Shown in pieces: positions 1 to 47,683 of a stretch of 48,242 bases of DNA (positions are counted from its first letter, which is position 1; each line of letters opens with the position of its first letter). Below the pieces are notes generated by a model. That model was not told the origin of the DNA. It was given only the letters and a program-made list of their open reading frames with translations, and did no database searches. The stretch comes from Candidatus Woesearchaeota archaeon (GTDB taxonomy: Archaea > Nanobdellota > Nanobdellia > Woesearchaeales > CG1-02-33-12): the NCBI GenBank assembly GCA_017609385.1, contig JAFCEA010000001.1, forward strand, positions 1 to 48,242. Reading direction: 5' to 3'. A program made the translations under genes and the position numbers.

Positions 1-1549
<1,549 letters not shown>

Positions 1550-1591
1550 TTACCTTTTTATTTTACTAATGCACTCTTTATGATTATATAT

Positions 1592-1752: not shown

Positions 1753-1845
1753 TTTTATACTCATTTTATCAAAAAATGATTTTATCCAATGTTGAACATT
1801 GGGTAAAGGGTTAAGTTAGGAAAGCCCTAATTCCTGATTATGAGA

Positions 1846-1864
1846 CCATGCATAGGCAAAGTAC
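1846..1864 (+). other. 5' strand of the 23S rRNA processing stem
   Basis: CCATGCATAGGCAAAGTAC is the perfect reverse complement of 4777-4795, as expected for the archaeal pre-rRNA processing helix that flanks the 23S. Confidence 0.8.
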
Positions 1865-4776
1865 AATTAAACTATTAGGTGGATGACTTGGCTCAAGATG
1901 CTGATGAAGGATGTGACAAGCTACACTATGCTCTGGCGAGGCGCACGTAGCCTTTGAACCAGAGATTTCCTAATGTGACTTCACTTTAAATCCGTAAGGA
2001 TGGGGAACGCAGGATCTTAGTACCTGCAGGAAAAGAAATCAATTGAGATGCTGTTAGTAAGAGCGACTGAAAACAGCAAAAGGCAAACTGAATCCTTTTT
2101 TGAAAGAAAAAGGAGATGTGGTGTTGTAAGACCGCTTTTTATCTTCTTTCGGGAACTCAAATTTTTCTGGAAAGAAAAGCTATAGAGGGTGATAGCCCCG
2201 TAGAGGCAACTGAAAAAGATTTTAGCGTGTTCTTGAGTACTGTTTACTGGAAACTAAGCAGGAATTTAGGAGACATCAACTTCTAACCTTAAATACATTT
2301 TGAGTCCGATAGAGCACAGTACCGTGAGGGAAAGTTGAAAAGAACCCTTAACAGGGAGTTAAAAGATCCTGAAACCTAATAGTAATAGAGGGGTAGGGCT
2401 CTTAGGAGTTCTACCGTGCGTTTCGAATAACGTGCCAGGGAGTTTATCTAAGTGGCAAGGATAATTCTTTAAAGGAGTATCCTAAGGGAAACCAACAGGC
2501 TCGCAGCTTGCAAGGAGCGAGGTATTAACATGCCTGAAGTCACTTGGATATGACCCGAAGCCGGGCGATCTAACCCTAGGTAAGGTGAAGTGAGGATAAA
2601 ACCTCGTGGAGGCCTGAAGAGGTTCTACGTGCAAGTGTTCTTCTAACCTGGGGCTAGGGGTGAAAAGCCAATCGAGCCCGGTGATAGCTGGTTCCTACTG
2701 AAGTTGGCCGTAGTCAAGTTTCAGATAAGACAACTAGAATGGTAGAGCTACGGATTGGGAATTTAGGCCTCGAAAGGGGTCGGTTCGCTGTCCAACTCCA
2801 AATGTTTTGGTGTCATAGATTCTGGAAAACGGCGGCTCGTCGTAAGGGTGAGTCACGAGAGGGGAACAACCCAGACTATAGTTAAGGTCCTAAAGTATCA
2901 ACTAAGTGTTAAAGGGTGAAGAATGTCCATAGCCTAAGACAGCGAGGAGGTTGGCTTAGAAGCAGCCATCCTTTAAAAAGTGTGTAACAACTTACTTGTC
3001 AAGGTTATGGGTCTCGAAGATTGACAGGGCTAAGTTGATCACCGATACTATAGACAACCGAAAGGTTAGTGGTAGGTAGGCATTCTGATAGGGAAGAAGC
3101 ATTTCTGTAAAGAAATGTTGACCTGTTAGGAAAGAAAATCCTGGTAAAAGTAAGATCATAGCAGAGTGAGAATCTCTGCCATCGAAGGGGCAAGGGTTCC
3201 TTGACAATATAGTTTAGTCAAGGGTTAGTTGATCCTAACCAAGCCCATAAATTGGGCAAGGGGAAAGGGAAAACGGTTAATATTCCGTTACTATTCAAAT
3301 ATTCGGCAACGAAAGTTTGATTACTGACACTTTGGGTTAGGCTAATACAAATCGTCGTTTGTATCAACTGGAATAAATCAATGGAGTATTACAATGATGA
3401 GAAGTTGATTAAATCCAGGATGAGTGGTTCTTATGAATCATTTAGCTTATACCTTGAGTCCGTGAAAAAGGAATCAAAACAGATTTTGAATAACCATACC
3501 CAGAACCAGCACAGGTGCCCCTAGGTGAGAAACCTAAGATGTGAAGGAGTAATCTAATTGAGGGAATTCGGCAAATTGGCCCTGTACCTTTGGTATAAGG
3601 GGTCCCTGCAATTGTGTTTGCATAAATGCGATTGCAGGGCGCAGTAACAAAGGCGGTTCGACTGTTTAACAAAAACTTAACTGACTGCTAGCCTGTAAAG
3701 GTGTGTATAGTCAGTGACGTCTGCCCAGTGTCAGTACCTAAAACCTCTTTTCAAGGAGGCTAAGGGCTGGTAAACGGCGGGGGTAACTATAACTCTCTTA
3801 AGGTAGCTTAATGCCTTGCCGATTGAATGTCGGCTTGCATGAATGGCGTAACGAAATCGCCACTGTCCCCAATTAGAATCCTCTGAACATTCTTTCCTGG
3901 TGCAAAAGCCAGGGATCTCCAGTGGGAAGTAAAGACCCCGTGAAACTTTACTGTAGCCTGTAGCTGTGATGTGAGTTTTGATGTGCAGTGTAGGTGGAAG
4001 TTGCTAAAGCTTGAACGCTAGTTTAAGTGTAGACGACAATGAGACACCACCCTTTAGAATTTACGTCACTAACTGAGAAATCAGGACAATTATAGGTGGA
4101 CAGTTTGGCTGGGATGGCACTCTACTGAAATGATATCAGTAGAGCCCAATGGTTGGCTCAAACGGGTCAGAAACATTTTGCGAAGATACAACAGCGCAAA
4201 AGCTGAGCATCCGTTGTAGAGTGTAAGAGTAAAAGCCAGCCTGACTGGATTTCAACTAATAAGAAATCCAGAGAAGAAATTTTGGTCTAGCGAACCCCTA
4301 TGCCTCCTTGATGGGGGCTAGGGATGACAGAAAAGTTACTCCGGGGATAACAGAGTTGTAGCGCCCGAGAGTTCATATCGACGGCGCTGCTTGCTACATC
4401 GATGTCGGCTCTTCCTATCCCGGCCGTGCAGAAGCGGCCAAGGGTGGGGGTGTTCACCCATTAAAAGGGATCGTGAGCTGGGTTCAGAACGCTGTGAGGC
4501 AGTTTGTTTAATATCTACTGGAGATGTAGGATATCTGAAGGGAAGGATCCCCTAGTACGAGAGGAACGGGGGTTCGGGGCCTCTGGTCCACCGGTTATCT
4601 GACAAGGTAAGCCGGGCAGCTACGCCCTAAGGGATAAGTGCTGAAAGCATCTAAGCACGAAGCCCGCCCTGAAAAGAGATATCTTAGGACTCGGGCAAAA
4701 GACCCGTTTAATGGGACCGGTGTGTAAGTGCCAAGCTTCGGCGAGGCATTCAGCACGCGGTTCCCAATAGTCCATA
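1865..4776 (+). rRNA. rrl: 23S (LSU) rRNA
   Basis: 5' GGTGGATGACTTGGCTCAAGATGCTGATGAAGG (~1879 onward). Peptidyl-transferase region GGGGATAACAG ~4343. Sarcin-ricin loop AGTACGAGAGGAAC 4554-4567. Helix 1 pairs ACTATTAGG (1871-1879) with CCCAATAGT (4763-4771). Length ~2.9 kb, so no large insertion. Mature ends are approximate. Confidence 0.93.
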
Positions 4777-4795
4777 GTACTTTGCCTATGCATGG
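4777..4795 (+). other. 3' strand of the 23S rRNA processing stem
   Basis: GTACTTTGCCTATGCATGG is the perfect 19-nt complement of 1846-1864. Confidence 0.8.
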
Positions 4796-11894: not shown

Positions 11895-13124
11895 TTATTT
11901 ATATCTTTTGAAAACTAAAACCGCATTGTGGCCTCCAAAGCCAAAAGAATTAGACATTGCTATATCAACATCTTTTTTTCTCGATTCATTTGGTACATAA
12001 TCAAGGTCACACTCTGGATCCTTAAATTCATAGTTTATTGTTGGAGGAATTATATTATTTTTGATTGTCAAGATTGAGATAATTGCTTCTAGACCACCAG
12101 CTGCTCCTATAAGATGTCCTGTCATTGATTTTGTTGAGCTTACTGGAATTTTCTTGGCATTAGAAAACACTTTTTTTATTGCTAGTGTTTCTATTCTGTC
12201 ATTTAAAGGGGTTGATGTTCCATGTGCATTAATATAATCAATCTGTTCTGGTTCTAATTTTGAACTTAATAAGGCTCCTCGCATTGCATCTGCTGCACCC
12301 TCACCATTTTTATCAGGAGCAGCTAATTTATAAGCATCGCAATTACAGCTATAACCAACAATTTCTGCATATATTCCTGCATTTCTTTCTAATGCATGTT
12401 GTTGTTCTTCTAGTACCAAAATTCCTGCGCCTTCTCCTAAAACAAAACCACTTCTTTTTTTATCAAAGGGTCTTGATGCTTTTTTTGGCTCATCATTGTA
12501 TTCTTTAGTTATTGCCATCATATTTGTAAATGCTGCTACTCCTACTGGTACAATAGGCGCTTCTGTGCCCCCTGTGATTATTAGATCTGCTTCTCCATGT
12601 TTTATTTTTAAATAGGATTCACCAATTGCATTAGCACCAGAAGCACATGCTGTTGAAACAGAAAAATTAGAGCCTTTAAGAGAATATTTTATTGCTATAA
12701 GTGCTGGTGCTGCATTTGACATTAGTTTTGGTATTGTCTTTGGGTTAACTTTATCAGGACCTTTTTCATATAAAATATTTTGTTGCTTTATTGTTGTTTT
12801 AAGACCACCAATTGCTGTTCCAATGATTACACCTATTTTTTTTCCTGATGGGATTTCTAGATTATTAAGAGCTCGCTCTGTTGCTGCCAAGGCATATTGT
12901 GAAAATAAATCAAGGTCCTTTATTTCTTTTTTGCTTATTTTATAGTGTTCTGGATTAAAGTCTTTTACTTCTGCTGCAATCTTAACCTCAAAATCAGAAC
13001 TATCAAATTTTGTTATTTTATCTACACCAGAAACACCATTAACAAGATTCTCCCAAAATGTATTTATATCGTTACCCAGGGGAGAAATTACACCTAAACC
13101 GGTTACAACCACCCTTCTTTCCAT
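11895..13124 (-). CDS. fabF: Beta-ketoacyl-ACP synthase II (bacterial FabF type)
   Basis: RRVVVTGLGVISPLGN, active-site STACASG, HGTSTPLND, GHLIGAAGGLE and NSFGFGGHNAVLVFK: a full-length KAS II pattern. Confidence 0.9.
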   Translation of the reverse strand: MERRVVVTGLGVISPLGNDINTFWENLVNGVSGVDKITKFDSSDFEVKIAAEVKDFNPEHYKISKKEIKDLDLFSQYALAATERALNNLEIPSGKKIGVIIGTAIGGLKTTIKQQNILYEKGPDKVNPKTIPKLMSNAAPALIAIKYSLKGSNFSVSTACASGANAIGESYLKIKHGEADLIITGGTEAPIVPVGVAAFTNMMAITKEYNDEPKKASRPFDKKRSGFVLGEGAGILVLEEQQHALERNAGIYAEIVGYSCNCDAYKLAAPDKNGEGAADAMRGALLSSKLEPEQIDYINAHGTSTPLNDRIETLAIKKVFSNAKKIPVSSTKSMTGHLIGAAGGLEAIISILTIKNNIIPPTINYEFKDPECDLDYVPNESRKKDVDIAMSNSFGFGGHNAVLVFKRYK

Positions 13125-13176: not shown

Positions 13177-14192
13177 ATGGACAATGTAAGAATTGCTGGA
13201 ATTGGTTCTTATCTTCCTAAAAAGATTGTTACTAATAAAGATTTAGAAAATATAGTTAAGAATTATGATTATAGTAAATATGATGATTTTTCTGAGTGGG
13301 TAATTAGAGTAACAGGCATTGAAGAAAGACACTATGCTGATGGAAATGAAACAATAGAAGAAATGGGTGCTGAAGCTTCTAAAAAAGCATTAGAGGACGC
13401 TAATTTGAAAGCAATTGATATTGACTTAATAATTCTAAATACATTCACACCAGGGGCATTAATACCAACTTCAGCTATTGAAGTAGGGCATTTAATTGGT
13501 AATGATAACATACCAGCTATTACAATAAACCAGGCATGTTCTGGTTTTGTTTATGCAGTAGAGAGCGCGTACCATCATATAAGAAGTGGAAAATACAACA
13601 ATGTCTTAGTTGTTGCAAGTGAAAAATTATCAAGTATTATTGATTATAGCAACCCAAAAACAGCTATTTTGTTTGGGGATGGTGCTGGAGCAGCTGTTTT
13701 GCAAAGGAGTAATAAAAAAGGCATCTTGGGGATACCCTACATTGGCGGAAAATATTCTTCTAAACATATTAATGTAAAAAATACAGGTGTAGATGTAAAA
13801 GATATTCTAACAAAGGCTGAAAAAAGTATGTTAAAAAGGAATACCTCAAAATGAGTGGTGGTCCACAGGTATTAAGACAAGCTGTTAATGCTATGGTTCA
13901 GTCTGCTAGAATTGCACTTAGAAGAAGCAATTTAGAAATAAAGGACATTGACTGGCTTTGCCCTCATCAAGCAAATAAAAGAATAATAGACGGTACTGCT
14001 AAATCTAAATACTTGCGTATGTCAAAAAAAACTCTTATTACAATAGAAGAAGATGGTAATGTATCTGGTGCTTCTAATATTATAACCCTTGATAAAAGTA
14101 TAAAACAAGGTAAGGTTAAAAGAGGAGATAAAATTTTAATAACTGCTGTTGGTGGGGGTTATACAATGGGTGCTTTTGTTTTTGAATATTAA
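13177..14192 (+). pseudogene. fabH: Beta-ketoacyl-ACP synthase III (FabH-like) split into two ORFs (13177-13854 and 13851-14192) by a -1 frame change
   Basis: ORF1 carries the Cys motif NQACSGFVYA. ORF2 carries HQAN and GNVSGAS (the His and Asn of the triad). The ORF2 frame is already open from 13821 and reads KKYVKKEYLKMSGGPQV. The frames meet at GAAAAAAG (13819-13826). Confidence 0.75.
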
Positions 14193-30297: not shown

Positions 30298-31011
30298 TCA
30301 GTCTTGTACAATCTTTACAATTCTTGGAGGTCTGTTCACATTATTGACTGTTACTATTACATCCTGGCTTGTTGATTCTATGTTATCAGAGGCTGTTACC
30401 GTAACAATATGTGTTCCTGCATCATCATAGTTTGTTGTATAGCTTGCCTCTGTCATCCAGCCAGAGTATGTTATTGTTACTTCATCTCCGTCAGGATCTG
30501 TTGCAACTGGCTCAAAGCTTACTGTCTCACCCTCATTAAGTGTGATGTCGGCAATTGGACTTAGTACTGGTGGTTTATTTATGCTCTCAACAACCAACAA
30601 AATCTTTTGTGTATCTGTTAATTCACCATCAGATGCTGTTACAGTTATCTCATAGTTTCCTGCATCTCCCTTCTTTGTCTGCCATCTACCCTCATTGTCT
30701 AATGGCTCACTAAATGTATACAAAATAGTGTCTGCATCAGGATCCTCGCTTTCAGGCTTTAGAACAACTAATTCCCCTTCTTGAACCATTATTTTGGTTA
30801 ACTCTTCTTCTGGTTCTTCTTCAACCTCTTCTACAACTTCTTCTAGTATTTCAGTTATTAGTTCTTCTTCTTTTTCCTCTACCCCAAGACATTCATCCAA
30901 ATTGGTAACAATAGAACCATCTGGGCATACATACTTTGTTTCTGTAAGCTTGCATCCGCTTGCCAAAAGCAATAAAAGAACTAACCCACAAAAAAATATC
31001 TCTTTTTTCAT
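30298..31011 (-). CDS. Putative lipoprotein with an acidic linker and two cadherin-like repeats (paralog of 28754-30208)
   Basis: Signal peptide ends LLLASGC (lipobox-like). TKYVCPDGSIVTNLDEC motif, E-rich linker. The first repeat is visibly similar (many identical positions by eye) to the first repeat of the neighbouring gene. Confidence 0.8.
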   Translation of the reverse strand: MKKEIFFCGLVLLLLLASGCKLTETKYVCPDGSIVTNLDECLGVEEKEEELITEILEEVVEEVEEEPEEELTKIMVQEGELVVLKPESEDPDADTILYTFSEPLDNEGRWQTKKGDAGNYEITVTASDGELTDTQKILLVVESINKPPVLSPIADITLNEGETVSFEPVATDPDGDEVTITYSGWMTEASYTTNYDDAGTHIVTVTASDNIESTSQDVIVTVNNVNRPPRIVKIVQD

Positions 31012-31124: not shown

Positions 31125-32222
31125 CTATAAACCAAAAAATCCTTTTTTCTTTTTTGAGTCTTTTTCAAACTCTTTTAGAAGCTCTTTCTGCTTTTTTGTA
31201 AGTTTTGTTGGGGTTTCAACAACTATTTTTACATTCTCTGAGCCAACACCATATCCATGAAGACTTGGAATGCCCTTTCCTTTCATCTTGAATATTGTAT
31301 TTGTTTGTGCTCCTGCTGGTATTTTTAACTTTGCCTTTCCCTTTAATGTTGGAACCTCTATTTCAGAGCCAAGTGCAGCCTGTGCAAAGCTTACTGGGAT
31401 TTCACAGTATATATCATTATTTCTTCTTTCAAATATATTATGCGGTTTTATATGGATTACAACATATAAATCTCCAGGGCTTCCATTTTTTATTCCAGCT
31501 TCTCCGCCGCCGGCAATCCTAAGTTCATTGCCATTATCAATGCCTTTTGGGATAGTAATTTCTATCTTTCGATCATGATGAACCCTACCAGTGCCTTCAC
31601 ATTCTGGACATGGATCTTTTATAATTTTTCCTTCACCATGGCATTTAGGGCATGTTGTTGTTGTAGAAAAAATACCAAATGGTGTTCTCCTTGTCTGCTG
31701 GATACGGCCAGAGCCATTGCATTTGTTGCATGTTATAATATCAGAGCTTGACTTTGCTCCAGAGCCATTGCATTCCTTGCATTTCTCCATTCTAGGAACT
31801 ATAATATGCTTTTTTGCGCCAAAGGCAGCTTCCTCAAGTGTTATTTCCATATCATATCTCAAGTCAGCCCCTCTTCTTGGGCCACGGCTGTGCCTTCCAA
31901 AGCCCCTGCTAAAAAAAGTGTCAAATATGTCCTCAAAATCAAAGCCAAAATCTGAAAAACCAAAATCAGAGAAGTCAAAGCCTGCAGCACCAGGGCCAAA
32001 GCCCTCTGTTGTTGTGCCAAATCTGTCATATTGTGCTCTTTTTTTATCATCGCCAAGAACAGAAGCAGCCTCATTAATCTCCTTGAATCTTTCAGCAGCA
32101 TCAGAATCAGTTTTATTTATGTCTGGATGATATTTCTTGGCCAGCCTCTTGTAAGCCCTCTTAATCTCTTCTTTGGAGGCATTTTCAGAAACACCCAATA
32201 TTTTGTAATAATCTTTGGCCAT
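31125..32222 (-). CDS. dnaJ: Chaperone DnaJ (Hsp40, type I)
   Basis: J domain with HPD (KKYHPDINK), G/F region and four CxxCxGxG zinc-finger repeats. Confidence 0.95.
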
Positions 32223-32253
32223 TTTTAATCTATTCTAGTTTCTATATTAAACA

Positions 32254-32775
32254 TCATCTATTTGTTAATTTTTTTCCTAGTTTTTTTAGTTCATTGATTA
32301 CTGTTATGTTATTTTTAACTTCCCCAGAATCATCTGCTTTTGCTGCTAATTTTCCTATAATAGGTATTTTACAAATCTCACAAAAAATTTCAAGAGTTTT
32401 TAATGCAGTTTTTTCTGTTGCAATACCAGTTGAAATCAAGATTGCTCTTTTTTCTCTTAATCTTTTATCCTGCCAATAAGGGTTCATTCTATCAATAAAA
32501 TCCTTCATCAAACCAGAAACATTATTAAAATAAGTAGGTGAACCAAGAATCAAGATATCAGCATCAAATATTTTTTTATAAATATCACACATGTCGTCCT
32601 TTATTTTGCATTCTTTATGTTTATCACAATAACTATCTCCATCACAATGTTCAATTCTTAGTTCTCTCAAAAGAATTAATTCTTTTTCAACATTACCTAC
32701 GCCTTCCAGAACTTTGTTTAGCATAAACTCTGTATTGCCTTTTCTTGGTGAGCCACATATTGCCAATACTTTCAT
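32254..32775 (-). CDS. NADPH-dependent FMN reductase / iron-sulfur-flavoprotein-like protein
   Basis: MKVLAICGSPRKGNT, Cys cluster CDGDSYCDKHKEC and ILGSPTYFNNVSG. Confidence 0.75.
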   Translation of the reverse strand: MKVLAICGSPRKGNTEFMLNKVLEGVGNVEKELILLRELRIEHCDGDSYCDKHKECKIKDDMCDIYKKIFDADILILGSPTYFNNVSGLMKDFIDRMNPYWQDKRLREKRAILISTGIATEKTALKTLEIFCEICKIPIIGKLAAKADDSGEVKNNITVINELKKLGKKLTNR

Positions 32776-32797
32776 TTTAAATTAAAAAAAGAAAAAA

Positions 32798-34705
32798 TTA
32801 CTTTTTCTTTTCCTTGTCATCCTCTTCCTTGTATTCTGCGTCAACTACTTTTTCGCCTTTGTTTTTTGGTTCCTCTGCTGTTTCTGCTTTGCCTGCTCCA
32901 GCTTGTTGCTGTTTCTTTGCCTGCTCTTCAGCCACTTTTTGGTACATCTCTGTTGACATCTTTTGTACAAGCTGGTTTACTTCATCCATCTTTGTTTTTA
33001 TTGCTGCTGCGTCTTTCTTCTCTGGCTTCAATAGTTCCTTTAGTTCCATTATCTTTCCTTTAACAGTTTCAAGCTCCTTGGCGTCAACCTTTCCCTCAAA
33101 CTCCTTGAACAGCTTTTCTGTTGAATAAACTAGAGTGTCTGCCTGGTTTATTGTTTCAACCTCTTGTTTTCTTTTCTTGTCTTCCTCTGCATGCTCTTCA
33201 GCTTCTTTTCTCATTCTTTCAACTTCATCTTCATTAAGCTTTTGCGATGCTGTGATTTTTATTGACTGCTCTTTTCCTGTTCCAAGGTCCTTTGCTGTTA
33301 CATGAACAATCCCATTTGCATCAATATCAAATGTTACCTCTATCTGTGGGATACCCCTTGGCGCAGGAGGGATCCCAACCAAATCAAATCTTCCCAAGCT
33401 TTTGTTGTCAGCAGCCATTGAACGTTCACCTTGCAAGACATTTATTGTCACAGCAGGCTGGTTATCTGCAGCTGTTGAAAATATCTGTGATTTCTTTGTT
33501 GGAATTGTTGTGTTTCTCTCAATTAAAGGGGTTCTTACCCCTCCAAGTGTTTCAATTCCAAGAGTTAATGGAGTAACATCCAGCAATAAAATGTCCTTTA
33601 CATCTCCTGCAAGAACACCTGCCTGTATAGCAGCTCCTGCTGCAACACATTCCATTGGGTCAACTCCCCTCTCTGCCTTTTTTCCTATAATGTCCTCAAT
33701 AAACTTTCTCACACAGGGCATTCTTGTAGGTCCGCCAACTAAAATTATCTTGTTTATATCATCTGGCTTTAATTTAGCATCCTTTATTGCCTGCTCAATT
33801 GGATGTTTGCATTTCTTTATTATTGGCTCAACTAATTCCTCAAGCTTTGAGCGCCTTATTTTTATTGTTAAATGCTTTGGGCCTTTATCAGTAGCAGTTA
33901 TAAAAGGAAGATTTATATCTGTCTCAAGTGTTGTGGAAAGCTCTATTTTTGCTTTTTCAGCAGCCTCTCTTAATCTTTGCATTGCTACAGCATCATTTTT
34001 CAAGTCGATTCCCTCATTTTTCTTGAATTCCTCAACAATGAAATCTGTAAGAGCATTATCCATGTCTGTTCCGCCAAGCTGTGTGTCTCCGCTTGTGGAT
34101 TTTACCTCAAAGACTCCATCACCAAATTCCATTATTGTAACATCTAGTGTTCCGCCTCCAAAATCAAAAACCAGAATCTTAAGTTCTTTGTCTGTTTTGT
34201 CAAGCCCGTAAGCTAAGGATGCAGCTGTTGGCTCATTAATAATTCTGATAACATCTAAACCAGCTATTGTTCCAGCATCCTTTGTTGCCTGTCTTTGGTT
34301 GTCATCAAAATAAGCTGGACAGGTTATAACTGCTTTTGAAATCTTCTCTCCAATAAATTCCTCTGCATCCTTTTTTATTTTTTGTAGTATGAATGCAGAT
34401 ATCTGTTGTGGAGTGTATTCCTTGCCGTTAATTTTGTATTTATGGCTTGTACCCATCTTTCTCTTAACAGCTGTTATTGTTCTCTCTGGATTTGAAACTG
34501 CCTGTCTTCTGGCTGGTTCTCCAACTAGCATCTGACCATCATCTGTAAAGGCAACAACTGACGGAAATGCCTTTCCATAAGCAGTTGTACCCTCAGAGCT
34601 TGGTATTATAATGGGCTTTCCTGCCTGCAGAAAAGCTGCTGCAGAATTGCTTGTCCCTAAATCTATCCCAATTATTTTCTCCTTTTTTGTTTTCTCCTTG
34701 ACCAT
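32798..34705 (-). CDS. dnaK: Chaperone DnaK (Hsp70)
   Basis: [19 protein letters not shown]-like [10 protein letters not shown] and the full Hsp70 pattern. The ATG at 34705 has GGGGGT upstream and is preferred over the TTG at 34720. Confidence 0.96.
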
Positions 34706-34735
34706 TTTAATTACCCCCAAATTTAAGTTTTATGA

Positions 34736-35095
34736 TTATCCAAAATAGCTTGGTGATTTTACTGTTTTGCCCTCCCCTGTTTTTTTAATTCTCTTCTTTT
34801 TCTTTTTTTCATATTTCTTTAGTGAGTCCGGCTTTTCTATTTTGCCAAACTCTGACTCATATTTCTTTACAACCCTTGACAAAACATTAAGAAACTGCTT
34901 TGCATGATATGGCTCCACCATTATAACATTGTGCTTTAATGCTATTGTAGCAGTCGGGCTTCTTGCATCTATTCTTGGTGTTACACATCTAAAGTCAAAG
35001 ATAAACTGTGTTGGACTAAAGTTAATTGATGTTTCATGTGAAAAAAATGCATCACTATCCATTATGCTCATATTTATTTTTTGTTTTTCTGCCAT
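34736..35095 (-). CDS. DUF3467-like small protein with a basic C-terminal tail
   Basis: The core FSHETSINFSPTQFIFDF...VIMVEPYHAKQFLNVLSRVVKKYESEFGKI resembles DUF3467. This is from memory of the family pattern and was not searched. Confidence 0.55.
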   Translation of the reverse strand: MAEKQKINMSIMDSDAFFSHETSINFSPTQFIFDFRCVTPRIDARSPTATIALKHNVIMVEPYHAKQFLNVLSRVVKKYESEFGKIEKPDSLKKYEKKKKKRIKKTGEGKTVKSPSYFG

Positions 35096-35107
35096 TTTAA
35101 AACCTCC

Positions 35108-35446
35108 TTAATCATCTTTTTTCAATGCAATCTTCCTTAATTCTTCAACACTTTCGTGTGTGAGTATTGTTCTTTCCCTTCCCTTTACTCTCTTTAATGA
35201 ACCTATTTCAACAACTTCAAGGAACTTTACAAGCTTTCTTTGGTTGAAGTTGTCATAATCTTTTAAAGAGCCCAATGCCTCATACAAATCCTGGTCTGTT
35301 GTTACAAGGTCAATCTCATTATTTCTGCACATTATCAATGTCTCTATCTTATCACTTGTTCCAAGAAAATATTTTAGTATAGCTCCTGCCTTGAGGTAGA
35401 GCTTCTGCTTCTGTATTCCGTTTTCATCATTTATTTTTATTCTCAT
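35108..35446 (-). CDS. Hypothetical protein (112 aa)
   Basis: A clean ORF whose ATG overlaps the upstream stop (ATGA). No recognisable motif. Confidence 0.5.
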   Translation of the reverse strand: MRIKINDENGIQKQKLYLKAGAILKYFLGTSDKIETLIMCRNNEIDLVTTDQDLYEALGSLKDYDNFNQRKLVKFLEVVEIGSLKRVKGRERTILTHESVEELRKIALKKDD

Positions 35447-35955
35447 TTTTTCAAAATATTATAGTTTAGTATTTTCTTAAGTTTTTCTTCATCAGGAACA
35501 AGCTCCTTTAGTGAGCCGCCGGGTATTGACTTATTTTGTGTTAAAAATATTTTCCACTGCCTTATTGAGTCAGGATCATCTGGATTTACAAGGTAATTAA
35601 GCATAAACCACTGGTTTAAATCATCCCCGTATGTATTGCAGTTGCCTATTTTGCAGTGAAGTGGCTTTACCTCGTGGATTGTGCAGCCAACCTGCTCGTT
35701 ATAAAAAATGCATTTGCCATATGGCTTAGTTCCTTTGATTAGTTTTGGCCTCAGTAATTTTGTATTAAATCTCTCATGCTCTTCAAGATATTTTTTCTTG
35801 AGCTCGTCTGTTGTCATCCTTAAAAACCGTGCAATTCTTGTGATATCATCATCAACTAAAAAGCCGGATGTGTATTTGCAGCAGTTGCCACACATCTTGC
35901 ACTCTTTCCCAAGCTTTAATACAGTTTCTTTTGGTGTTTTTTTTGAAATAAGCAT
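35443..35955 (-). CDS. YkgJ-family (CxxCxxCC) zinc/iron-sulfur cluster protein
   Basis: CKMCGNCCKY motif plus a second Cys set (CIFYN...CTIHEVKPLHCKIGNC). The ATG at 35955 has AGGGGT upstream and is preferred over the TTG at 35982. Confidence 0.7.
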   Translation of the reverse strand: MLISKKTPKETVLKLGKECKMCGNCCKYTSGFLVDDDITRIARFLRMTTDELKKKYLEEHERFNTKLLRPKLIKGTKPYGKCIFYNEQVGCTIHEVKPLHCKIGNCNTYGDDLNQWFMLNYLVNPDDPDSIRQWKIFLTQNKSIPGGSLKELVPDEEKLKKILNYNILKK

Positions 35956-35965
35956 TTTTACCCCT

Positions 35966-36460
35966 TTATTTGTTTTTTGCAATCTTTACCTTTGCATGCC
36001 TTATTGGTTTATTATTAAGTATATAACCTTTTTGCAAAACTTTTATTATTGTATTATCAGGCTTATTGCTTTTATCGCAGATAAGCACCTCGTGCTTATT
36101 GGGGTCAAATTTCTCACCCAATGGATTAATTTGTTTTAGTCCCTCTTTTTCAAGTAATGAATAAAATTGTGAAAATACCAATTTCATCCCTTCAAGGAAT
36201 TTATTTTTGTCTTTGTGGTTTTTTAAGGCAATCTCAAATGAGTCAACTATTGGAAGTAATTTTATTATTAAGTTTTGTGAGGCATATCTGATTAAGTCCT
36301 GTTTTTCTTTTTCAACTCTTTTTTTGTAGTTCTCAAACTCTGCCTGTAATCTCTGTAATGAGTCTGTAAGTTCTCTTGTTTTATGAGTTAACTCTTTTAT
36401 TCCGTTATCTTTTTTCTCCATTTCTGATTTTTTCTTTTTATGTGCTTCTTCTTTAGTCAT
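35966..36460 (-). CDS. grpE: Nucleotide exchange factor GrpE
   Basis: LQRLQAEFENYKKRVEKE coiled-coil motif, LLPIVDSFE and a C-terminal beta domain (RPAKV-like IRHAKVKI). Confidence 0.9.
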   Translation of the reverse strand: MTKEEAHKKKKSEMEKKDNGIKELTHKTRELTDSLQRLQAEFENYKKRVEKEKQDLIRYASQNLIIKLLPIVDSFEIALKNHKDKNKFLEGMKLVFSQFYSLLEKEGLKQINPLGEKFDPNKHEVLICDKSNKPDNTIIKVLQKGYILNNKPIRHAKVKIAKNK

Positions 36461-36500
36461 TTAATCACCAGGTTAGTTTAATAATAAATAATTAAAAAAT

Positions 36501-36953
36501 CTACTCAATTTCAATTCGTTTCTTTTTTAATGCCTGTTTCTTTTTTGGAATCTCTATCCTTAGCATTCCATTTTTGTATGTTGCCTTTGCTTTGTCAGCT
36601 ATAACCTCTGCTGGCAATGGTAGTTTTCTGTAGAACTGATGAGCTCTTGTTTCATATGAATAAAATCCTTTTTTCTTAACTTCAGTCTCTGCTTTTTTCT
36701 CTACCTTGACTTCAATAAAGTCGTCAGTAATATTTAACTCTATATCTTTCTTGTCAGCCCCGGGTAATTCAAATGCTGCTACAACTGAGTTTTCAGTTTC
36801 TCTTATATCAGATATTGGTGCTCTGAAAAAGTCGCTAGTCTTTGCCAGGCTCTTGTTCTGGTTTCCAAACCCTAAAAGGGGTCTTGTTTTTGCAAAAAGT
36901 CTGTCCATTTCTTCTTGTATTGCCTTAAATTCTTCAAAAGGGTCCCATATCAT
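36501..36953 (-). CDS. hsp20: Small heat-shock protein (Hsp20/alpha-crystallin)
   Basis: Alpha-crystallin domain (DIRETENSVVAAFELPGADKKDIELNITDDFIEV...LPLPAEV...ATYKNGMLRIEIPK). The ATG at 36953 follows GGAGGTG and is preferred over the GTG at 36962. Confidence 0.92.
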   Translation of the reverse strand: MIWDPFEEFKAIQEEMDRLFAKTRPLLGFGNQNKSLAKTSDFFRAPISDIRETENSVVAAFELPGADKKDIELNITDDFIEVKVEKKAETEVKKKGFYSYETRAHQFYRKLPLPAEVIADKAKATYKNGMLRIEIPKKKQALKKKRIEIE

Positions 36954-36967
36954 TTTGTTCACCTCCT

Positions 36968-40253: not shown

Positions 40254-40661
40254 TCACTCGGATTTGACAGCTCCAGTATGTTTGCACCTGTAAATCTGTG
40301 CAAAGGAAGGAGTAACAACAATATAATCCTCACCAAATCCTGCAATGTCACCGTCAATTGCATCGCATGTTTTCTTAAGTTTGTTGATGGCCCTTTTAAG
40401 ATCAACCAAGTCCTTATCCTTCAATGGCTTTATGTTAATCAGGGCAATAGTATAACCCTCCCTCAATGAATCAAGAATTTCTTTTATGTCAGAAAAATCA
40501 TCAATAACAAATGGTCTTACAATAATATTTGCCTTAGACTCTCCGCCTTCTGTGTCAAGCTCAAGATATTCCTTTTCGCCCTCTGATAATAATTCTGCTT
40601 CTGTCTTTGAGCCAAATATTTTTTTAAAGCCTGATTTAACATCTGAAAGAATTTTTTTCAT
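40254..40661 (-). CDS. sepF: Cell division protein SepF homolog
   Basis: N-terminal amphipathic peptide (MKKILSDVKSGFKKIFG). The C-terminal domain IVRPFVIDDFSDIKEILDSLREGYTIALINIKPL...AINKLKKTCDAIDGDIAGFGEDYIVVTP matches SepF/DUF552. GGAGGG supports the ATG at 40661. Confidence 0.85.
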   Translation of the reverse strand: MKKILSDVKSGFKKIFGSKTEAELLSEGEKEYLELDTEGGESKANIIVRPFVIDDFSDIKEILDSLREGYTIALINIKPLKDKDLVDLKRAINKLKKTCDAIDGDIAGFGEDYIVVTPSFAQIYRCKHTGAVKSE

Positions 40662-40787
40662 CTTTTTGCCCTCCTTTTTATAAAAATCATACAGCATAAG
40701 TTAAATAACAAATATTTAAATGTTTCTATTATTACCGATGAAAAAATTAGAAAGGTTTTTAAAAAAGCAAAAAAGCAAAAATAATAT

Positions 40788-41555
40788 ATGATACCATACA
40801 TGCCGCATCCGGTTTTGATTGATTTGGGATTTCTGAAGATTTACAGCTGGGGCTTGATGGTTGCAATTGCATTTATTGTTGCAACAATCTTGGCAACAAA
40901 AGAAGCAAAAAGAAAGAAAATAGACCATGAAAAAATTTACAGTCTTGTTACCTATATTATAATAGGGGCAATCATTGGCTCAAGAATAGGTTATTTATTA
41001 TTTAACCCTAATAATCTTACAAACTTCTTAGATATATTTAGGTTCTGGGAAGGAGGCCTATCATTCCATGGCGGTTTTATAGGGGGGCTTTTATTTGGAT
41101 TTTTTTATGTTAAAAAAAACAAGCTGAAGTTTTGGGAGATTACAGATATAGTTGCTCCTTCGATTCCTCTCGCACAAGCAATTGGAAGAATTGGCTGTTT
41201 TTTAAGGGGCTGCTGTTATGGCATTGAAACAACACTGCCATGGGGCATTCAACATCTAGACCAAATAAGGCATCCAACACAGGTTTACTCAAGCATTGCA
41301 TTGTTTTTAATCTTTATTTTCCTTTCAAAGCAAAAATACAAAAAGAATTTCAACGGAGCTTTATTCCTAACCTATATTATAATATACAGTGTATTCAGGT
41401 TCTTTATAGAATTCATAAGAGCAGATCCGAGAATTCTTTTTGGCTTAACAGGAGCTCAAATTGTGAGCATTATTTTATTTGTAATATCCTTATCTTTATT
41501 TTTGAAATTCAGAAAGTTATTTAAAACAAAAAACATTAGTAAAAGAAAATGCTAA
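40788..41555 (+). CDS. lgt: Prolipoprotein diacylglyceryl transferase (bacterial Lgt family)
   Basis: Block-by-block match to E. coli Lgt recalled from memory: IYSWGLM (HWYGLM), GSRIGYLLF, FRFWEGGLSFHGGFIGG, DIVAPSIPLAQAIGRIGCF, RHPTQVYS and FRFFIEFIRADP. Confidence 0.9.
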   Translation: MIPYMPHPVLIDLGFLKIYSWGLMVAIAFIVATILATKEAKRKKIDHEKIYSLVTYIIIGAIIGSRIGYLLFNPNNLTNFLDIFRFWEGGLSFHGGFIGGLLFGFFYVKKNKLKFWEITDIVAPSIPLAQAIGRIGCFLRGCCYGIETTLPWGIQHLDQIRHPTQVYSSIALFLIFIFLSKQKYKKNFNGALFLTYIIIYSVFRFFIEFIRADPRILFGLTGAQIVSIILFVISLSLFLKFRKLFKTKNISKRKC

Positions 41556-42223
41556 AGACACCAATAATTATTGTGAACTTTAAGACATACAAAGAATCAA
41601 CAGGAGATAATGCCATAAAGCTTGCAGAGATATGCAATAAAATAGCAGAAGAAACAAAAACAAGCATTGCTGTTGCAGCCCAGAGCACTGATATTTACAG
41701 GATTGCAAAGATTGTTTCAATGCCAGTTTTGAGCCAACACATTGATGCAATAAGCTTTGGAAAAAACACTGGATTTTTGCTTCCAGAGTCTGTAAGGCAG
41801 GCAGGTGCAGAAGCAACATTGTTAAATCATTCTGAGCACAGGTTAGATTTTGATGTATTGAAAAGCTCAATTGAAAGGGCAAGGCAAGCTAGGCTAAAAA
41901 CAGTAGTTTGTGCAAAGAATGTTGAGGATGCAAAAAAAATTGCATCATTAAATCCTGATTTCATTGCGGTTGAGCCTCCAGAGCTTATCGGCAGCAATAT
42001 ATCTGTTTCAGAAGCAAAGCCAGAGGTAATAAGTGATGCTGTAAAAGCAATAAAATCCATTAACAATAAAATAAAAGTCCTTTGTGGAGCTGGAATACAC
42101 AACAAAGATGATGTTAAAAAATCTATTGAATTGGGAGCAGAGGGAATTCTGGTTGCCTCAGGAGTTGTTAAAGCAGAAAACCAGGAATCTGCCTTAAGAG
42201 ATTTAATAAATGGATTAAGTTAA
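41549..42223 (+). CDS. tpiA: Triosephosphate isomerase (archaeal short type)
   Basis: IIVNFKTY, LLNHSEHR, AVEPPELIG and GAGI...V: the archaeal TIM pattern in 224 aa. Confidence 0.9.
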   Translation: MLKTPIIIVNFKTYKESTGDNAIKLAEICNKIAEETKTSIAVAAQSTDIYRIAKIVSMPVLSQHIDAISFGKNTGFLLPESVRQAGAEATLLNHSEHRLDFDVLKSSIERARQARLKTVVCAKNVEDAKKIASLNPDFIAVEPPELIGSNISVSEAKPEVISDAVKAIKSINNKIKVLCGAGIHNKDDVKKSIELGAEGILVASGVVKAENQESALRDLINGLS

Positions 42224-42756
42224 GGAACCACAACATATAATTTCTGGGTTGTCCCATACCTGTTGTCAGAATCTTTCTCGCATGAAATTTTTTCATCACT
42301 GCAAATATAAACATTAAGGATGTATGTTCCTTTTTTTGTGCCTCCAGGAACCTGGACAGCTATTCCTACCTTCTTTTGTTCATTAGGTTCAATAGTTACC
42401 TCCTTTTTTAACACCCAATATTTTTTTCCTATTTGAGGTATTCCCTCAGAATCTGATTCTTCAACATCAACGTAAAAGTCCATCCTCTCATTATGGGTAT
42501 TCAAAATCCCGACTGTAAAAAATCCTACCTTGTTTGGCCTTAGCTCCCTCCTGCTGATTCCAAGGCATATTCTCTCTGAAGAATCACACATGATGTTCTC
42601 AAGATGATCATCAATATCCTTTATTGTTATCTTGCTGAGTTCATCAGCCTGATGCATAATGTCATAAGCAAACTTAATTCCAAAACCAAATACAACTATT
42701 GATATAATTAGAATTACAATAAAATTTATTGAGAGTTCAAATGCTTTCTTGTTCAT
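42220..42756 (-). CDS. Archaeal type IV pilin-like protein (class III signal peptide)
   Basis: The N-terminus MNKKA/FELSINFIVILIISIVVFGFG has a basic stretch, a small residue, then a hydrophobic helix. It is paralogous to 43593-44111. Confidence 0.65.
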   Translation of the reverse strand: MNKKAFELSINFIVILIISIVVFGFGIKFAYDIMHQADELSKITIKDIDDHLENIMCDSSERICLGISRRELRPNKVGFFTVGILNTHNERMDFYVDVEESDSEGIPQIGKKYWVLKKEVTIEPNEQKKVGIAVQVPGGTKKGTYILNVYICSDEKISCEKDSDNRYGTTQKLYVVVP

Positions 42757-42757
42757 T

Positions 42758-43567
42758 TTAGCCTGGATTTACAAAGAATATTTTAGAGCTGTATGATTTT
42801 GTGTAGGTATCCCTTTTTACCTTATTTTCATATATTGGATTTCCCTCGCTGTCATGCCCTATCCTTTCTTTTATGATGTAGGTATAACCAATAACCAAGC
42901 TCAGCCTTTTCTCTTCTTCAACATTTTGCATGCTATCTTCATTGATAGGTATTGACTCAATGAAAGAATCACCAACATATTTTAATGTTCCATCAAGCTC
43001 TTTTCCCCCAATCAGAAGTTCTTTCTCAACAAGCTTTAGCGATGTTATTGTAACTGGAAGCACTAAATCTTCATCTGTATCTTCAAGCTGAATCTTAACC
43101 TTAAATTTTGAACTGTCTATGTTAAATGGCTGGTCAAGAGATGATGTTATTCCAATCTTAAAATAGCTAAACTCCTTGTCATCTGTAAGGACAATCTTCC
43201 TTATCAAAGACTCATCTATGCTAAGGACACATTCATTATCCTTGCATTTATATTCAAGGTATTCTGTATCATAGGTTCTTGAGCCAATCTGTATTTTGCC
43301 TTTACCGCTGCATTTACCACAATCGTTTTCACATAAGCATTTGTTTTCATCTGCATTTGTTTCACATCTTTTATTTCCGCAGCAATTGCTTATAACATCT
43401 ATCTCACATTTATTGTTAACACAACTTATATCAAGACATTTACTAGAATAGTCCTTAAACTCTTCCCTGACCCTTGAATTACAGTCAGAACTAAGCTTAC
43501 ACTCCTTGCAGCCACTGGTCAATAACATAACAAAAATCAGTACTGCAATAATAAATTTAGTTCTCAT
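42758..43567 (-). CDS. Cys-rich putative lipoprotein (hypothetical)
   Basis: Signal peptide MRTKFIIAVLIFVMLLTSGC (lipobox-like) followed by a Cys-rich region. It sits between the two pilin-like genes. Confidence 0.6.
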   Translation of the reverse strand: MRTKFIIAVLIFVMLLTSGCKECKLSSDCNSRVREEFKDYSSKCLDISCVNNKCEIDVISNCCGNKRCETNADENKCLCENDCGKCSGKGKIQIGSRTYDTEYLEYKCKDNECVLSIDESLIRKIVLTDDKEFSYFKIGITSSLDQPFNIDSSKFKVKIQLEDTDEDLVLPVTITSLKLVEKELLIGGKELDGTLKYVGDSFIESIPINEDSMQNVEEEKRLSLVIGYTYIIKERIGHDSEGNPIYENKVKRDTYTKSYSSKIFFVNPG

Positions 43568-43592
43568 AAAAATCACTTATGATTTAAAATAA

Positions 43593-44111
43593 TTATTTTG
43601 TAACTGTTATATAAAATGTTTTTGAGGCATAATCTCCATCATCAATAAGTGCACTGCACATATATGTTGTGGCAACTGCATTTGGTGATACCTTAATGAC
43701 TGCTGGCAAGACCATTATCTCATCCCTTTCAAGCATCTTTGTTTCTCTAAAAACACTAAATGTAATATCATCTAAATTTGCATCCTCATCCATCTTGCTG
43801 TCGCACATAAATTCAATGTCAAAAGAAGCTTCATCCTCTTCCTCATTTCTTATTCCAAAATAAATCGTTTTTTCACCGCTTTTTTTGATTTCTATATTTT
43901 CCTCACGCAAGACAAGTCTTTCATCGCTGTCCCTAATCGTGTTAATCATATCATTTTCTATGTCCTTGCTTACCTCTCCAAGCTGGCCTATTGTTTGACT
44001 GAACATGCCTCTTATAAAGCCAAGGCCTATGCCGAGAACAGTTATAGCCAGAATCAGGATAACAATGGCATTAATAGAAATCTGTAACCCTGCTTTTTTA
44101 TTTGATCTCAT
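43593..44111 (-). CDS. Archaeal type IV pilin-like protein (class III signal peptide)
   Basis: MRSNKKAG/LQISINAIVILILAITVLGIGLGF. GAGGTG 6 nt upstream supports the ATG at 44111. Confidence 0.65.
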   Translation of the reverse strand: MRSNKKAGLQISINAIVILILAITVLGIGLGFIRGMFSQTIGQLGEVSKDIENDMINTIRDSDERLVLREENIEIKKSGEKTIYFGIRNEEEDEASFDIEFMCDSKMDEDANLDDITFSVFRETKMLERDEIMVLPAVIKVSPNAVATTYMCSALIDDGDYASKTFYITVTK

Positions 44112-44226
44112 TAAAATCACCTCTTTGGATAATGTATACTAATATAGCAATTATATATAAAACTTTCTATTATAACCAGAAACCTCTTTAGAAAGCTTTT
44201 TAAATTAACCATAATTCCCAAAAAAC

Positions 44227-46078: not shown

Positions 46079-47683
46079 ATGTTTTTCAGGAAAAAAAGAA
46101 ATCCCTTCTTAACAATCGGACTATTAACAGGAGTATTTTTAGGCTTGTTTTTAGGCAATATCTTATTTTGGATGATAATCGGAGGCCTTATCGGTTACCT
46201 GATGGAAAAAAAAGGTTTCTCCCCTAACAAAGGAAAGATAATTGATGTCAAAAAACCCTTTACAAAGATTGGCTCATTAATAACGATAGTTGTACTGATT
46301 TTTATTTTGTATTTTTTCAGGCCATGGTTTCATCCATTTATTATGGGCCTTTACACTCATCCAAGCATTATATTTATGATAATATTTGGATTATTTTCTG
46401 CATTTGCATTTATGAAAAAAAAGGATAATCTTGGTTATGGCTTGATGATTATTGCATTGATTTTCTTCATGGCATTTTCATTAAATGATGTTATTGTTGA
46501 GAGATATATTGTAAGTGAAACAGAATATCACATTATAAATGAGCTTCCTGACTCATCACAAGTCAGGATTGTTCCAGTTACTGTTGCCAGGAGATATGCA
46601 AAAGACAGCCTGCAGAAATCAAGGGAAAAGCTTGGAGATTTTGACATTGTTAATCTAAACAATAATCTTATCTGGACAACACCAAGGGTTCCTGATGGGA
46701 TAGTACTCTATTTTACACAGAAGGTTAAGGGCCTCATGACAGTAAATGCAGAGAAGAGCAGCAGGCAGACAAAGATGATTAATCAGGAGCTTAAAATTGG
46801 AGAGGATATTGGAATAACAGATAATATCTACTGGAAACTTTACAAAAAAACTTATTTTATAAATCTTGGAGAGATTTATTATATAATTGAAAGTAATGAG
46901 GTTTTAACAGTTGCTCCTGTAATTAAGTATAAGTTTAGGTTTCCTGTTATGATTCCATATTTTGACGGGGTTTATGTTGTAAATCCTGAGGCTGAAATAA
47001 AAAAATATTCACCAGATGAAATAGATTATATTGATTACCTAAAAAATAACAGGGCATATCCAGAATATCTTGCAAGATTGTATGTTGATTCATATAAATA
47101 TCATCTTGGTGTGTTAAATGCATGGTTTATGCACAAGGACCAGATAGAGATATCAGATGTTTATGGCCAGCAGAACAGGCAGCCATTCTTAATGCCAACT
47201 GTTGATGGTCTTAAATGGATCCTGGCAACAGAGCCATATGGCGAGAGCTATGGCGTGTTCAAGATATTTATTGTTGATGCAGTAACTGGCCAGATTGACA
47301 TGCTTGAGATGGATGAGGACAAGACATTAACCGGCCCAGTAAGGGTAGTAAGCTATGTAAAGAAGCAATTCCCAAGGATTGACTGGACAGAGGCAAGAAT
47401 TGTTGAGCCAAGGCCTTATGTTGTTAATGGAAAACTCTACTGGATGCTCTCAATAACACCAGCAGATTTTGCAGGAATCTCATACACTGTTTTTGTTGAT
47501 TCAGAGAACAATGATGTTCTTTCATTTGAGACAGATGAGGATGTGCTTAATTTTGTCAGCAAGGGAATAATCACTGCTGGAAATAAAACAATAACAGAGA
47601 TTCCAAGCAGGGATAAAGAAGAAATAATAAGAGAGATAGAGGAAAAGCTGGAAGAGCTTAAGGAATTAATAGAAGAGGGGTAA
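46079..47683 (+). CDS. Polytopic membrane protein with a large extracytoplasmic domain (hypothetical; faint resemblance to UPF0182/COG1615)
   Basis: About five N-terminal TM helices followed by a ~380-aa soluble domain. GAGGTGA precedes the ATG. The family guess rests only on the overall layout and a ...NGKLYWMLSITP... block. Confidence 0.6.
   Translation: MFFRKKRNPFLTIGLLTGVFLGLFLGNILFWMIIGGLIGYLMEKKGFSPNKGKIIDVKKPFTKIGSLITIVVLIFILYFFRPWFHPFIMGLYTHPSIIFMIIFGLFSAFAFMKKKDNLGYGLMIIALIFFMAFSLNDVIVERYIVSETEYHIINELPDSSQVRIVPVTVARRYAKDSLQKSREKLGDFDIVNLNNNLIWTTPRVPDGIVLYFTQKVKGLMTVNAEKSSRQTKMINQELKIGEDIGITDNIYWKLYKKTYFINLGEIYYIIESNEVLTVAPVIKYKFRFPVMIPYFDGVYVVNPEAEIKKYSPDEIDYIDYLKNNRAYPEYLARLYVDSYKYHLGVLNAWFMHKDQIEISDVYGQQNRQPFLMPTVDGLKWILATEPYGESYGVFKIFIVDAVTGQIDMLEMDEDKTLTGPVRVVSYVKKQFPRIDWTEARIVEPRPYVVNGKLYWMLSITPADFAGISYTVFVDSENNDVLSFETDEDVLNFVSKGIITAGNKTITEIPSRDKEEIIREIEEKLEELKELIEEG

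Follow-up and report, generated by a model that had tools for sequence, protein, structure and literature searches.

Three recent papers state that archaea have no homologue of Lgt, the phosphatidylglycerol:prolipoprotein diacylglyceryl transferase with which bacteria such as Escherichia coli anchor secreted proteins to lipid (PMC12462473, PMC13251419 and PMC13631571; Nat Commun 2025, mBio 2026 and JBC 2026), and from this they argue that the lipids of the archaeal membrane required another enzyme, AliA/AliB. The mBio claim rests on PF01790 in RefSeq genomes (PMC13251419). AliA and AliB of Haloferax volcanii (arCOG02177/arCOG02178) have the same proposed role as the archaeal Lgt described here, lipidating the lipobox cysteine of secreted proteins, and two conserved arginines of AliA have been likened to R143 and R239 of Lgt (PMC12462473). 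The authors set AliA apart from PF01790 (PMC12462473), whereas our protein clearly belongs to that family. It is encoded by a gene, lgt, on a 48,242-nucleotide stretch of Candidatus Woesearchaeota DNA (contig JAFCEA010000001.1 of assembly GCA_017609385.1; hereafter the window). An earlier note, made from the letters of this DNA alone, had pointed to a 255-aa bacterial-type Lgt at 40788-41555 and had remarked that canonical Lgt is reported to be absent from archaea, as the three papers indeed say. We conclude, with a probability of about 0.7, that the gene specifies a functional Lgt-family membrane transferase of an archaeal subfamily, which was anciently acquired from bacteria without lsp, domesticated and then vertically inherited.

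40788..41555, plus strand: lgt, prolipoprotein diacylglyceryl transferase homologue, 255 aa, ATG start (PF01790, TIGR00544, AlphaFold2/Foldseek)

The product matches the Pfam LGT profile PF01790 with E=3.7e-70 and 236.4 bits (cutoff 24.9), over profile positions 1-238 of 240, and the TIGR00544 lgt equivalog with 156 bits against a curated cutoff of 118.9. Compared with PDB chains, the sequence matches E. coli Lgt, 5AZB (E=8e-27), and nothing else. AlphaFold2, given 51 homologues, yields a confident model of seven long helices, with a predicted local distance difference test score (pLDDT) of 90.7 and a predicted template modelling score (pTM) of 0.85. Foldseek against the PDB again returned 5AZB as the sole significant match (E=1.8e-13, query-normalised TM score 0.83, root-mean-square deviation 2.8 Å). 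As modelled, the protein has the seven-transmembrane-helix fold of 5AZB, and E. coli Lgt (5AZB/5AZC) belongs to the same Pfam and TIGRFAM family. The two differ in that they share only 28% identity, and the periplasmic head domain has shrunk to a short hairpin of about 10 residues, compared with about 34 in E. coli (residues 151-161 correspond to 5AZB chain residues 162-196). All the conserved Lgt blocks that had been listed from the letters are present: IYSWG, GSRIGY, WEGGLSFHGG, GRIGCF, RHPTQVY and FRFFIEFIRADP.

The N-terminus, MIPYMPHP, is of a type that we come to associate below with an archaeal subfamily. Because M1, P3 and Y4 are invariant across the clade, we take the ATG at 40788 as the true start. 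Several database calls (P0006, P0015-P0019, P0021-P0024 and similar) are 243-246 aa long, begin at an internal Met, give 95% coverage and lack MIPY; these starts are likely to be mis-annotated.

To place the active site, we mapped the protein on to 18 conserved positions discussed in the mBio study (PMC13251419; E. coli numbering). R73, G98, G99, H103, G104, D129, G142, R143, G145, G154, F211, Y235, R239, E243 and R246 are all retained, and with them every one of the residues H103, G154, G99, G142, G145, Y235 and R246, which are essential in E. coli. The phosphate-binding/catalytic pair R143 and R239 corresponds to R134 and R204 of the window protein and is invariant in 35/35 sequences of its clade and in every archaeal-context Lgt examined. 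The same 35 sequences all retain R73, G98, G99, G104, D129, G142, G154, F211, Y235 and R246, and all but one to three of them H103, G145 and E243. Position 103 is H in 32 of the 35 and Q or Y in the remainder; it is variable among bacteria too (PMC13251419).

Where E. coli has Y26, N146 and E151, the latter two in the signature GRLGNFINGE, the window protein has W, C and C, and the same pattern runs through the 35-sequence clade. The earlier note had the protein match every conserved block of bacterial Lgt, which needs correcting at these three positions. We regard Y26W, N146C and E151C as characters of a subtype, rather than as decay or as exclusion from the family, because they are usual in the closest bacterial Lgts: among the nearest bacterial matches C146 occurs in 86/86, C151 in 83/86 and W26 in 9/86. 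All three have been described as variants of distant Lgts, N146C with E151C/D being noted in Leptospira and in M. smegmatis MSMEG_5408 (PMC13251419). These bacterial short-form Cys-Cys Lgts, from Clostridia, Omnitrophota, Actinomycetota, Margulisbacteria and similar metagenome-assembled genomes (MAGs), have in common with the window protein a length of about 240-260 aa, the motif GRIGCFLxGCCYG, a reduced head and 40-47% identity. Family profiles, predicted fold and residue pattern agree in making the window protein a genuine Lgt, of the short Cys-Cys subtype. An alignment comparison found no core position that systematically separates archaeal from bacterial Lgts, beyond the N-terminus and one position in arm 1, so the sequences give no hint of a re-tooled lipid pocket.

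The surroundings of lgt are archaeal and conserved. The features nearest to it are:

41549..42223, plus strand: tpiA, archaeal-type triosephosphate isomerase (TIM; NF003302 PRK04302, 297 bits)
40254..40697, minus strand: sepF, divergent from lgt (PF04472, 46 bits)
40744..40766, plus strand: conserved block AAATTAGAAAGGTTTTTAAAAAA, a purine-rich stretch resembling a transcription factor B recognition element (BRE), then a TATA-like box whose centre lies about 27 nt upstream of the ATG

The window opens with an archaeal small-subunit (16S) and large-subunit (23S) rRNA operon at 1-4786 and encodes, besides the archaeal-type TIM and SepF, a uL16 of archaeal/eukaryotic type. The end of lgt overlaps the start of tpiA by 7 nt, as the earlier note had claimed, and by 4 nt in loci L005 and L007; we read the two genes as one translationally coupled operon. 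SepF (divergent), the Lgt-TIM pair, a pilin-like protein, a lipobox protein and a second pilin-like protein, uL16 and then MscS follow one another in an order that recurs in independent JGI, NCBI, ENA and Logan assemblies with Lgt identities of 87%, 70% and 69%. Even at 56% Lgt identity (L008), the Lgt-TIM pair and the downstream genes are kept; the loci compared are L004-L008, L011, L013 and L014. Lgt-TIM adjacency as such is found in L001-L008, L013 and L014. The sepF gene, which holds the same position in L004, L005 and L007, shows that the gene preceding lgt in the window is not lsp. The claim that the contig is archaeal, and not a bacterial/archaeal chimera, is borne out by these genes and this synteny.

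Lgt and TIM have diverged together, their identities between loci being 85/81, 86/88, 84/87, 87/87, 70/73, 69/71 and 56/61%. For pairs with unsaturated synonymous divergence (dS), the ratio of nonsynonymous to synonymous substitution rates (dN/dS) of lgt is 0.09-0.23, and the open reading frame (ORF) is intact in every clade member. The composition of lgt is that of the other window genes (z=-0.38 for G+C content, GC, and z=+0.44 for third-position GC, GC3), and its codon usage is typical. The block AAATTAGAAAGGTTTTTAAAAAA lies at the same distance in 7/8 loci and has diverged in the remaining one, L008 (56% identity), whereas the sequence on either side varies; it is a putative archaeal BRE/TATA promoter, which would leave the transcript with little or no leader. 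Another conserved intergenic block, ACAGATATTTAAATGTTTCTATT, at 40703-40727, is common to the window, L004, L007 and L008 and probably holds the TATA box of the divergent sepF. Taken with its coupling to tpiA, the host-like composition and the conserved promoter-like box place lgt amid core genes and not in an island, in agreement with the earlier note. By these measures lgt is an old resident under purifying selection and vertically inherited.

We then asked how widely such genes occur. In a 5.8-billion-protein collection, the window's Lgt clade comprises about 34 clusters at 56-98% identity; the next matches are bacterial and do not exceed 47%. The clade was monophyletic in 161/200 neighbour-joining (NJ) bootstraps, and in 187/200 with more sequences. 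Scanning GTDB genomes with the single window protein gave only three close relatives, and starting instead from P0033, the clade member that has diverged most, added no other close relative among archaea. Two of the three GTDB genomes, representative MAGs with 84-85% Lgt identity, L001 (CAYMFI010000056.1) and L002 (CAZXME010000028.1), are titled 'uncultured Methanosarcinales archaeon', yet have Woesearchaeota-type synteny; these names are probably erroneous or binning placeholders.

A metagenome scan with the clade alignment returned 80 loci, and only here, plus in some database matches, did a wider archaeal set surface. Lgts of about 40-44% identity occur in these other archaeal gene contexts:

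L020: Lgt, then archaeal DnaG (NF003108, 404 bits, cutoff 300), proteasome alpha, SBDS, Rrp4 and Rrp41 (exosome superoperon)
L039: Lgt, then archaeal DnaG (421 bits)
L093: Lgt beside archaeal PheRS-beta (pheT_arch, 498 bits against 283)
L094: Lgt beside aIF-1A (118 bits against 91), in NCBI assembly GCA_964410985.1
L047: Lgt beside a divergent archaeal-type TIM fragment
L033: Lgt with a presenilin-type signal peptide peptidase (SPP) and TtuA

All of these archaeal-context Lgts retain R143, R239, G154 and R246. They open with an 8-9 residue N-terminus of the M-I-P-Y-x-P-H-P type (L046 starts MIPY and is unaligned through the region). Among the 42 lsp-linked bacterial relatives, by contrast, 38 open with M-x-P, just three residues (M-[YHF]-P in 36 cases), and the MIPYxPHP extension occurs in 0/42. 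Relative to bacterial Cys-Cys Lgts, then, the archaeal proteins add a five-residue N-terminal extension. The protein P0061 begins MIPYSTHP, and its contig shows no domain-diagnostic gene. In an unrooted NJ tree, the archaeal-context Lgts and the window's clade make up one 51-tip group. These data support a wider archaeal Lgt subfamily, spread across several DPANN lineages, of which the window protein is a member.

In bacterial relatives, lgt often travels with the signal peptidase II gene, lsp. A local Lsp profile made from E. coli, P. aeruginosa and S. aureus sequences, and validated on PDB entries, found lsp upstream of lgt on the same strand in 42/78 non-clade loci, with E values from 1e-12 to 1e-39. 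In these 42 loci, all within L015-L092, lsp lies mostly a few hundred bases from lgt (for example L015 9553-10014 and L058 9478-10005), and an lsp-lgt operon seems typical of the short Cys-Cys group. The same profile, applied to the window, its syntenic loci and the other archaeal-context loci, about 10 kb either side of lgt, found no Lsp. Because the profile finds none near archaeal lgt, yet is positive at 42 bacterial loci, we conclude that archaeal lgt is uncoupled from lsp. A tblastn search of the window and the loci syntenic with it found neither Lnt nor Lit.

A related archaeal contig, L012, encodes uL16, S19e, L31e and Cbf5, together with a homologue of the lipobox protein that is 40% identical to it. 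Its minus-strand genes at 3974-4675 and 3227-3970 are a Lit-family gene (PF07314, 78 bits, full profile) and TIM; the former sits beside TIM in the slot of lgt, and this TIM is of bacterial type. Lit, the lipoprotein intramolecular transacylase, works on ester-linked acyl chains in bacteria. Judged by its profile match, the Lit-family gene is a second bacterial lipoprotein-modification family in these archaea.

If Lgt works as a transferase, the same genome should supply lipobox-bearing Sec substrates. Two such proteins, both picked out by the earlier note, lie in the window, and one of them is flanked by pilin-like proteins:

30298..31011, minus strand: lipobox protein with PKD/Big_9 Ig-like domains, MKKEIFFCGLVLLLLLASGC, ...LLLASG-C20 (PS51257, Pfam)
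42758..43567, minus strand: conserved secreted protein with lipobox signal peptide, MRTKFIIAVLIFVMLLTSGC, ...LLTSG-C20-KEC (PS51257), counted from an ATG start, with an alternative GTG start at 43576
42220..42756, minus strand: pilin-like neighbour with N-terminus MNKKAFELSINFIVILII..., which by inspection resembles an archaeal class III (type IV pilin-like) signal peptide
43593..44120, minus strand: second pilin-like neighbour, ...KKAGLQISINAIVILIL..., class III-like N-terminus by inspection; syntenic

Using PROSITE PS51257 as the lipobox rule, and 123 spurious ORFs from the same DNA as the control, we found that both proteins match, against 0/123 of the spurious ORFs. Both also fit the L-x-S-G-C form that had been proposed, which can be refined to L-[A/T]-S-G-C in the window; position -3 is I or V in some orthologues. 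The family of the 42758..43567 protein has 33 clusters, and 29/31 full-length database homologues satisfy PS51257, the two that fail having N at -2 and retaining G-C. In its orthologues at six other loci, SGC-KEC is invariant while the hydrophobic core varies. Throughout the clade it remains two genes from lgt-tpiA. Plausible substrates are thus present, as the earlier note had supposed: the 42758..43567 and 30298..31011 proteins are candidate Lgt substrates, and the latter is a putative surface lipoprotein. A homologue of the 42220..42756 protein flanks the lipobox protein in L004, L005, L007, L008, L013 and L014. Neither pilin-like protein has a family match; the trio of pilin-like, lipobox and pilin-like proteins, syntenic across the clade, may form one surface structure.

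The lipid donor is addressed by two further window genes and by published surveys.

11895-13124, minus strand: FabF, bacterial type, intact (TIGR03150, 578.6 bits, cutoff 493.75)
13177-14192, plus strand: FabH, interrupted by a frameshift near 13850, within A-rich sequence, and so read as two ORFs

FabF and FabH are a divergent pair of bacterial-type fatty-acid condensing enzymes amid archaeal core genes, the latter being either a pseudogene or the product of a sequencing error. Bacterial fatty-acid synthesis genes and a bacterial glycerol-3-phosphate dehydrogenase have been reported in Woesearchaeota (PMC8204110), and the geranylgeranylglyceryl phosphate (GGGP) and digeranylgeranylglyceryl phosphate (DGGGP) synthases have been reported to be absent (PMC8421398). 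Because of FabF in the window and these lipid-gene surveys, a donor of the phosphatidylglycerol type is plausible. We consider it the most likely donor, made with bacterial-type lipid genes or scavenged; archaetidylglycerol is a possible alternative.

Overall, these data suggest the following model. A DPANN ancestor, now represented by MAGs labelled Woesearchaeota or Nanoarchaeia, most likely took lgt from bacteria long ago and left lsp behind. The gene would then have been domesticated, gaining an archaeal-type promoter, translational coupling to the archaeal tpiA and the composition of its host, and would afterwards have passed down vertically, with purifying selection acting on it. Reasoning from E. 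coli Lgt, we expect the protein to span the cytoplasmic membrane with seven helices, to use R134 and R204 (the equivalents of E. coli R143 and R239) to bind a glycerophospholipid with a glycerol head group, and to move the di-radyl-glyceryl moiety to the +1 cysteine thiol of Sec-exported L-x-S-G-C lipobox proteins. The conserved lipobox protein lying two genes downstream is one candidate acceptor; the other is the PKD-domain protein at 30298-31011. Family membership, fold, residue conservation, archaeal residence, synteny, selection and lipobox conservation are what the data show, whereas enzymatic activity, acceptor proteins, lipid donor and the removal, if any, of the signal peptide are inferred. 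Unlike its E. coli counterpart, this lgt belongs to an archaeon, forms an operon with an archaeal-type tpiA and lies behind a putative archaeal-type promoter box.

Several points weigh against this model. Y26 and N146, both essential in E. coli (PMC13251419), are W and C in the window protein, and the mBio authors tie N146C to the presumed low activity of M. smegmatis MSMEG_5408 (PMC13251419). Lsp is missing from the roughly 10 kb searched on either side of each archaeal lgt, so the canonical lipoprotein pathway may be incomplete in these archaea, and AliA (arCOG02177), if present, could account for the lipobox proteins without Lgt. Because the window FabH is frameshifted, endogenous fatty-acid synthesis is uncertain. 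The phylogeny with bacterial Lgts recovers the window's clade, but the deep NJ node uniting archaeal Lgts has a bootstrap of 0/200 for the groupings tested. A single archaeal origin consequently rests mainly on the N-terminal extension, and the trees point to no particular donor phylum. We infer from distribution in which direction and when the transfer took place, the trees being unrooted.

Some of these observations can be read in another way, namely that an Lgt homologue was retained for a different role, such as the transfer of a glyceryl lipid to some other acceptor, while the lipobox proteins are handled by an AliA-type system or by signal peptidase I. The replaced essential residues Y26W and N146C, the strongly reduced head domain and the lack of a nearby Lsp, which 42 bacterial relatives encode upstream and on the same strand, would all suit such a role, and AliA has been reported in DPANN 'with some gaps' (PMC12462473). 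In the window, the uncharacterised membrane proteins had no NCBIfam match. We nevertheless consider this reading unlikely. The same substitutions and short head are standard in the closest bacterial Lgts, which stand in lsp-lgt operons and are presumably true lipoprotein enzymes; the core has no position that systematically sets archaeal Lgts apart from these; and a lipobox protein with an invariant SGC remains close to lgt across the clade.

The bacterial origin in our model can also be questioned. Archaeal Lgt might be an ancient lineage, possibly older than the last archaeal common ancestor (LACA), that survives only in some DPANN and is perhaps the ancestor of AliA. Consistent with this, archaeal-context Lgts diverge to about 40% identity, occupy several unrelated core-gene contexts and have a derived N-terminal extension in common, and Hong et al. 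have suggested the Lgt family as a possible source of AliA (PMC12462473). We think it improbable, since, in an unrooted tree, the archaeal Lgts lie amid the bacterial short-form Cys-Cys group, separated from its members by about as much as these are from one another, and were found only in low-GC, DPANN-like contexts. Such lineages hold many bacterial genes (PMC8204110), and the RefSeq archaea are without Lgt (PMC13251419).

A recent horizontal acquisition, non-functional or decaying, is very improbable. Some residues essential in E. coli are indeed substituted; against this stand the low dN/dS and the ORF that is intact in every clade member. We rejected a decaying pseudogene on the basis of dN/dS and residue conservation, and a recent import on the basis of Lgt/TIM co-divergence, ameliorated, host-like composition, the conserved promoter-like box and synteny. 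An assembly or binning artefact, in which a bacterial lgt fragment was joined to archaeal DNA, is hardly credible even for metagenome-derived sequence from contamination-prone DPANN bins, because rRNA, SepF, archaeal TIM and uL16 lie on the same 48-kb contig, the identical gene order recurs in JGI, NCBI, ENA and Logan contigs at 56-98% identity, lgt overlaps the archaeal tpiA by 4-7 nt and its composition is host-like; chimerism and contamination were set aside on the same grounds.

A broader proposal, which we put forward tentatively and regard as doubtful, is that an old archaea-specific Lgt subfamily (MIPYxPHP, uncoupled from lsp, in several DPANN lineages) lipidates surface proteins using bacterial-type diacyl or archaeal ether lipids. 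If it were true with a bacterial-type diacyl donor, these archaea would have ester-lipid or mixed membranes, self-made or derived from bacterial hosts; with an archaeal ether-lipid donor, Lgt chemistry would be independent of the lipid divide. In either case there would be a second archaeal route of lipoprotein lipidation alongside AliA/AliB. Hong et al. noted that some archaea have many predicted lipoproteins yet no AliA/AliB, and inferred an additional lipidation pathway (PMC12462473). Archaeal Lgt is a candidate for that pathway, and the proposal could explain such genomes.

More immediately, the results correct a claim about distribution. Several DPANN lineages hold unambiguous, selectively maintained Lgt genes, set amid archaeal core genes and close to conserved lipobox proteins; this contradicts the current textbook-level statement that archaea lack Lgt. 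Because RefSeq and arCOG omit these MAGs, the published absence is best seen as a gap of sampling, and of attention. Full-text literature searches on DPANN, Woesearchaeota and Nanoarchaeota turned up no paper reporting Lgt or signal peptidase II in these groups. GenBank already names clade members "prolipoprotein diacylglyceryl transferase" by automatic annotation: MBU4283491.1 and MBU4492992.1 [Nanoarchaeota archaeon], MBA3063807.1 [Candidatus Woesearchaeota archaeon] and MDD5086612.1 [Candidatus Nanoarchaeia archaeon]. The sequences are therefore not new to databases, and the practical novelty is tempered, also because DPANN genomes are rich in bacterial genes. The question of the lipid donor becomes directly testable, and resolving it would help to tell whether the membranes of Woesearchaeota-like archaea are of bacterial type or mixed.

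Finally, some other features of the window deserve mention. In the 16S-23S spacer, Rfam gives a 58-nt tRNA-like match of 32.5 bits at 1592-1649 (plus strand); ARAGORN does not call it, and it could be a spacer tRNA that is degenerate or unusual. The stretch 46079-47683 (plus strand) encodes a protein of 534 aa whose N-terminus is hydrophobic; this protein has no Pfam or NCBIfam match, and its position downstream of MscS is kept in L004, L005, L007 and L011. A cluster at 31125-36962 (minus strand) encodes DnaJ, DnaK, GrpE and HSP20, and includes a DUF3467 protein and a CxxCxxCC protein (Pfam on the identical JGI contig L011). This chaperone cluster fits the report that the bacterial DnaK system is widespread in DPANN (PMC8204110).

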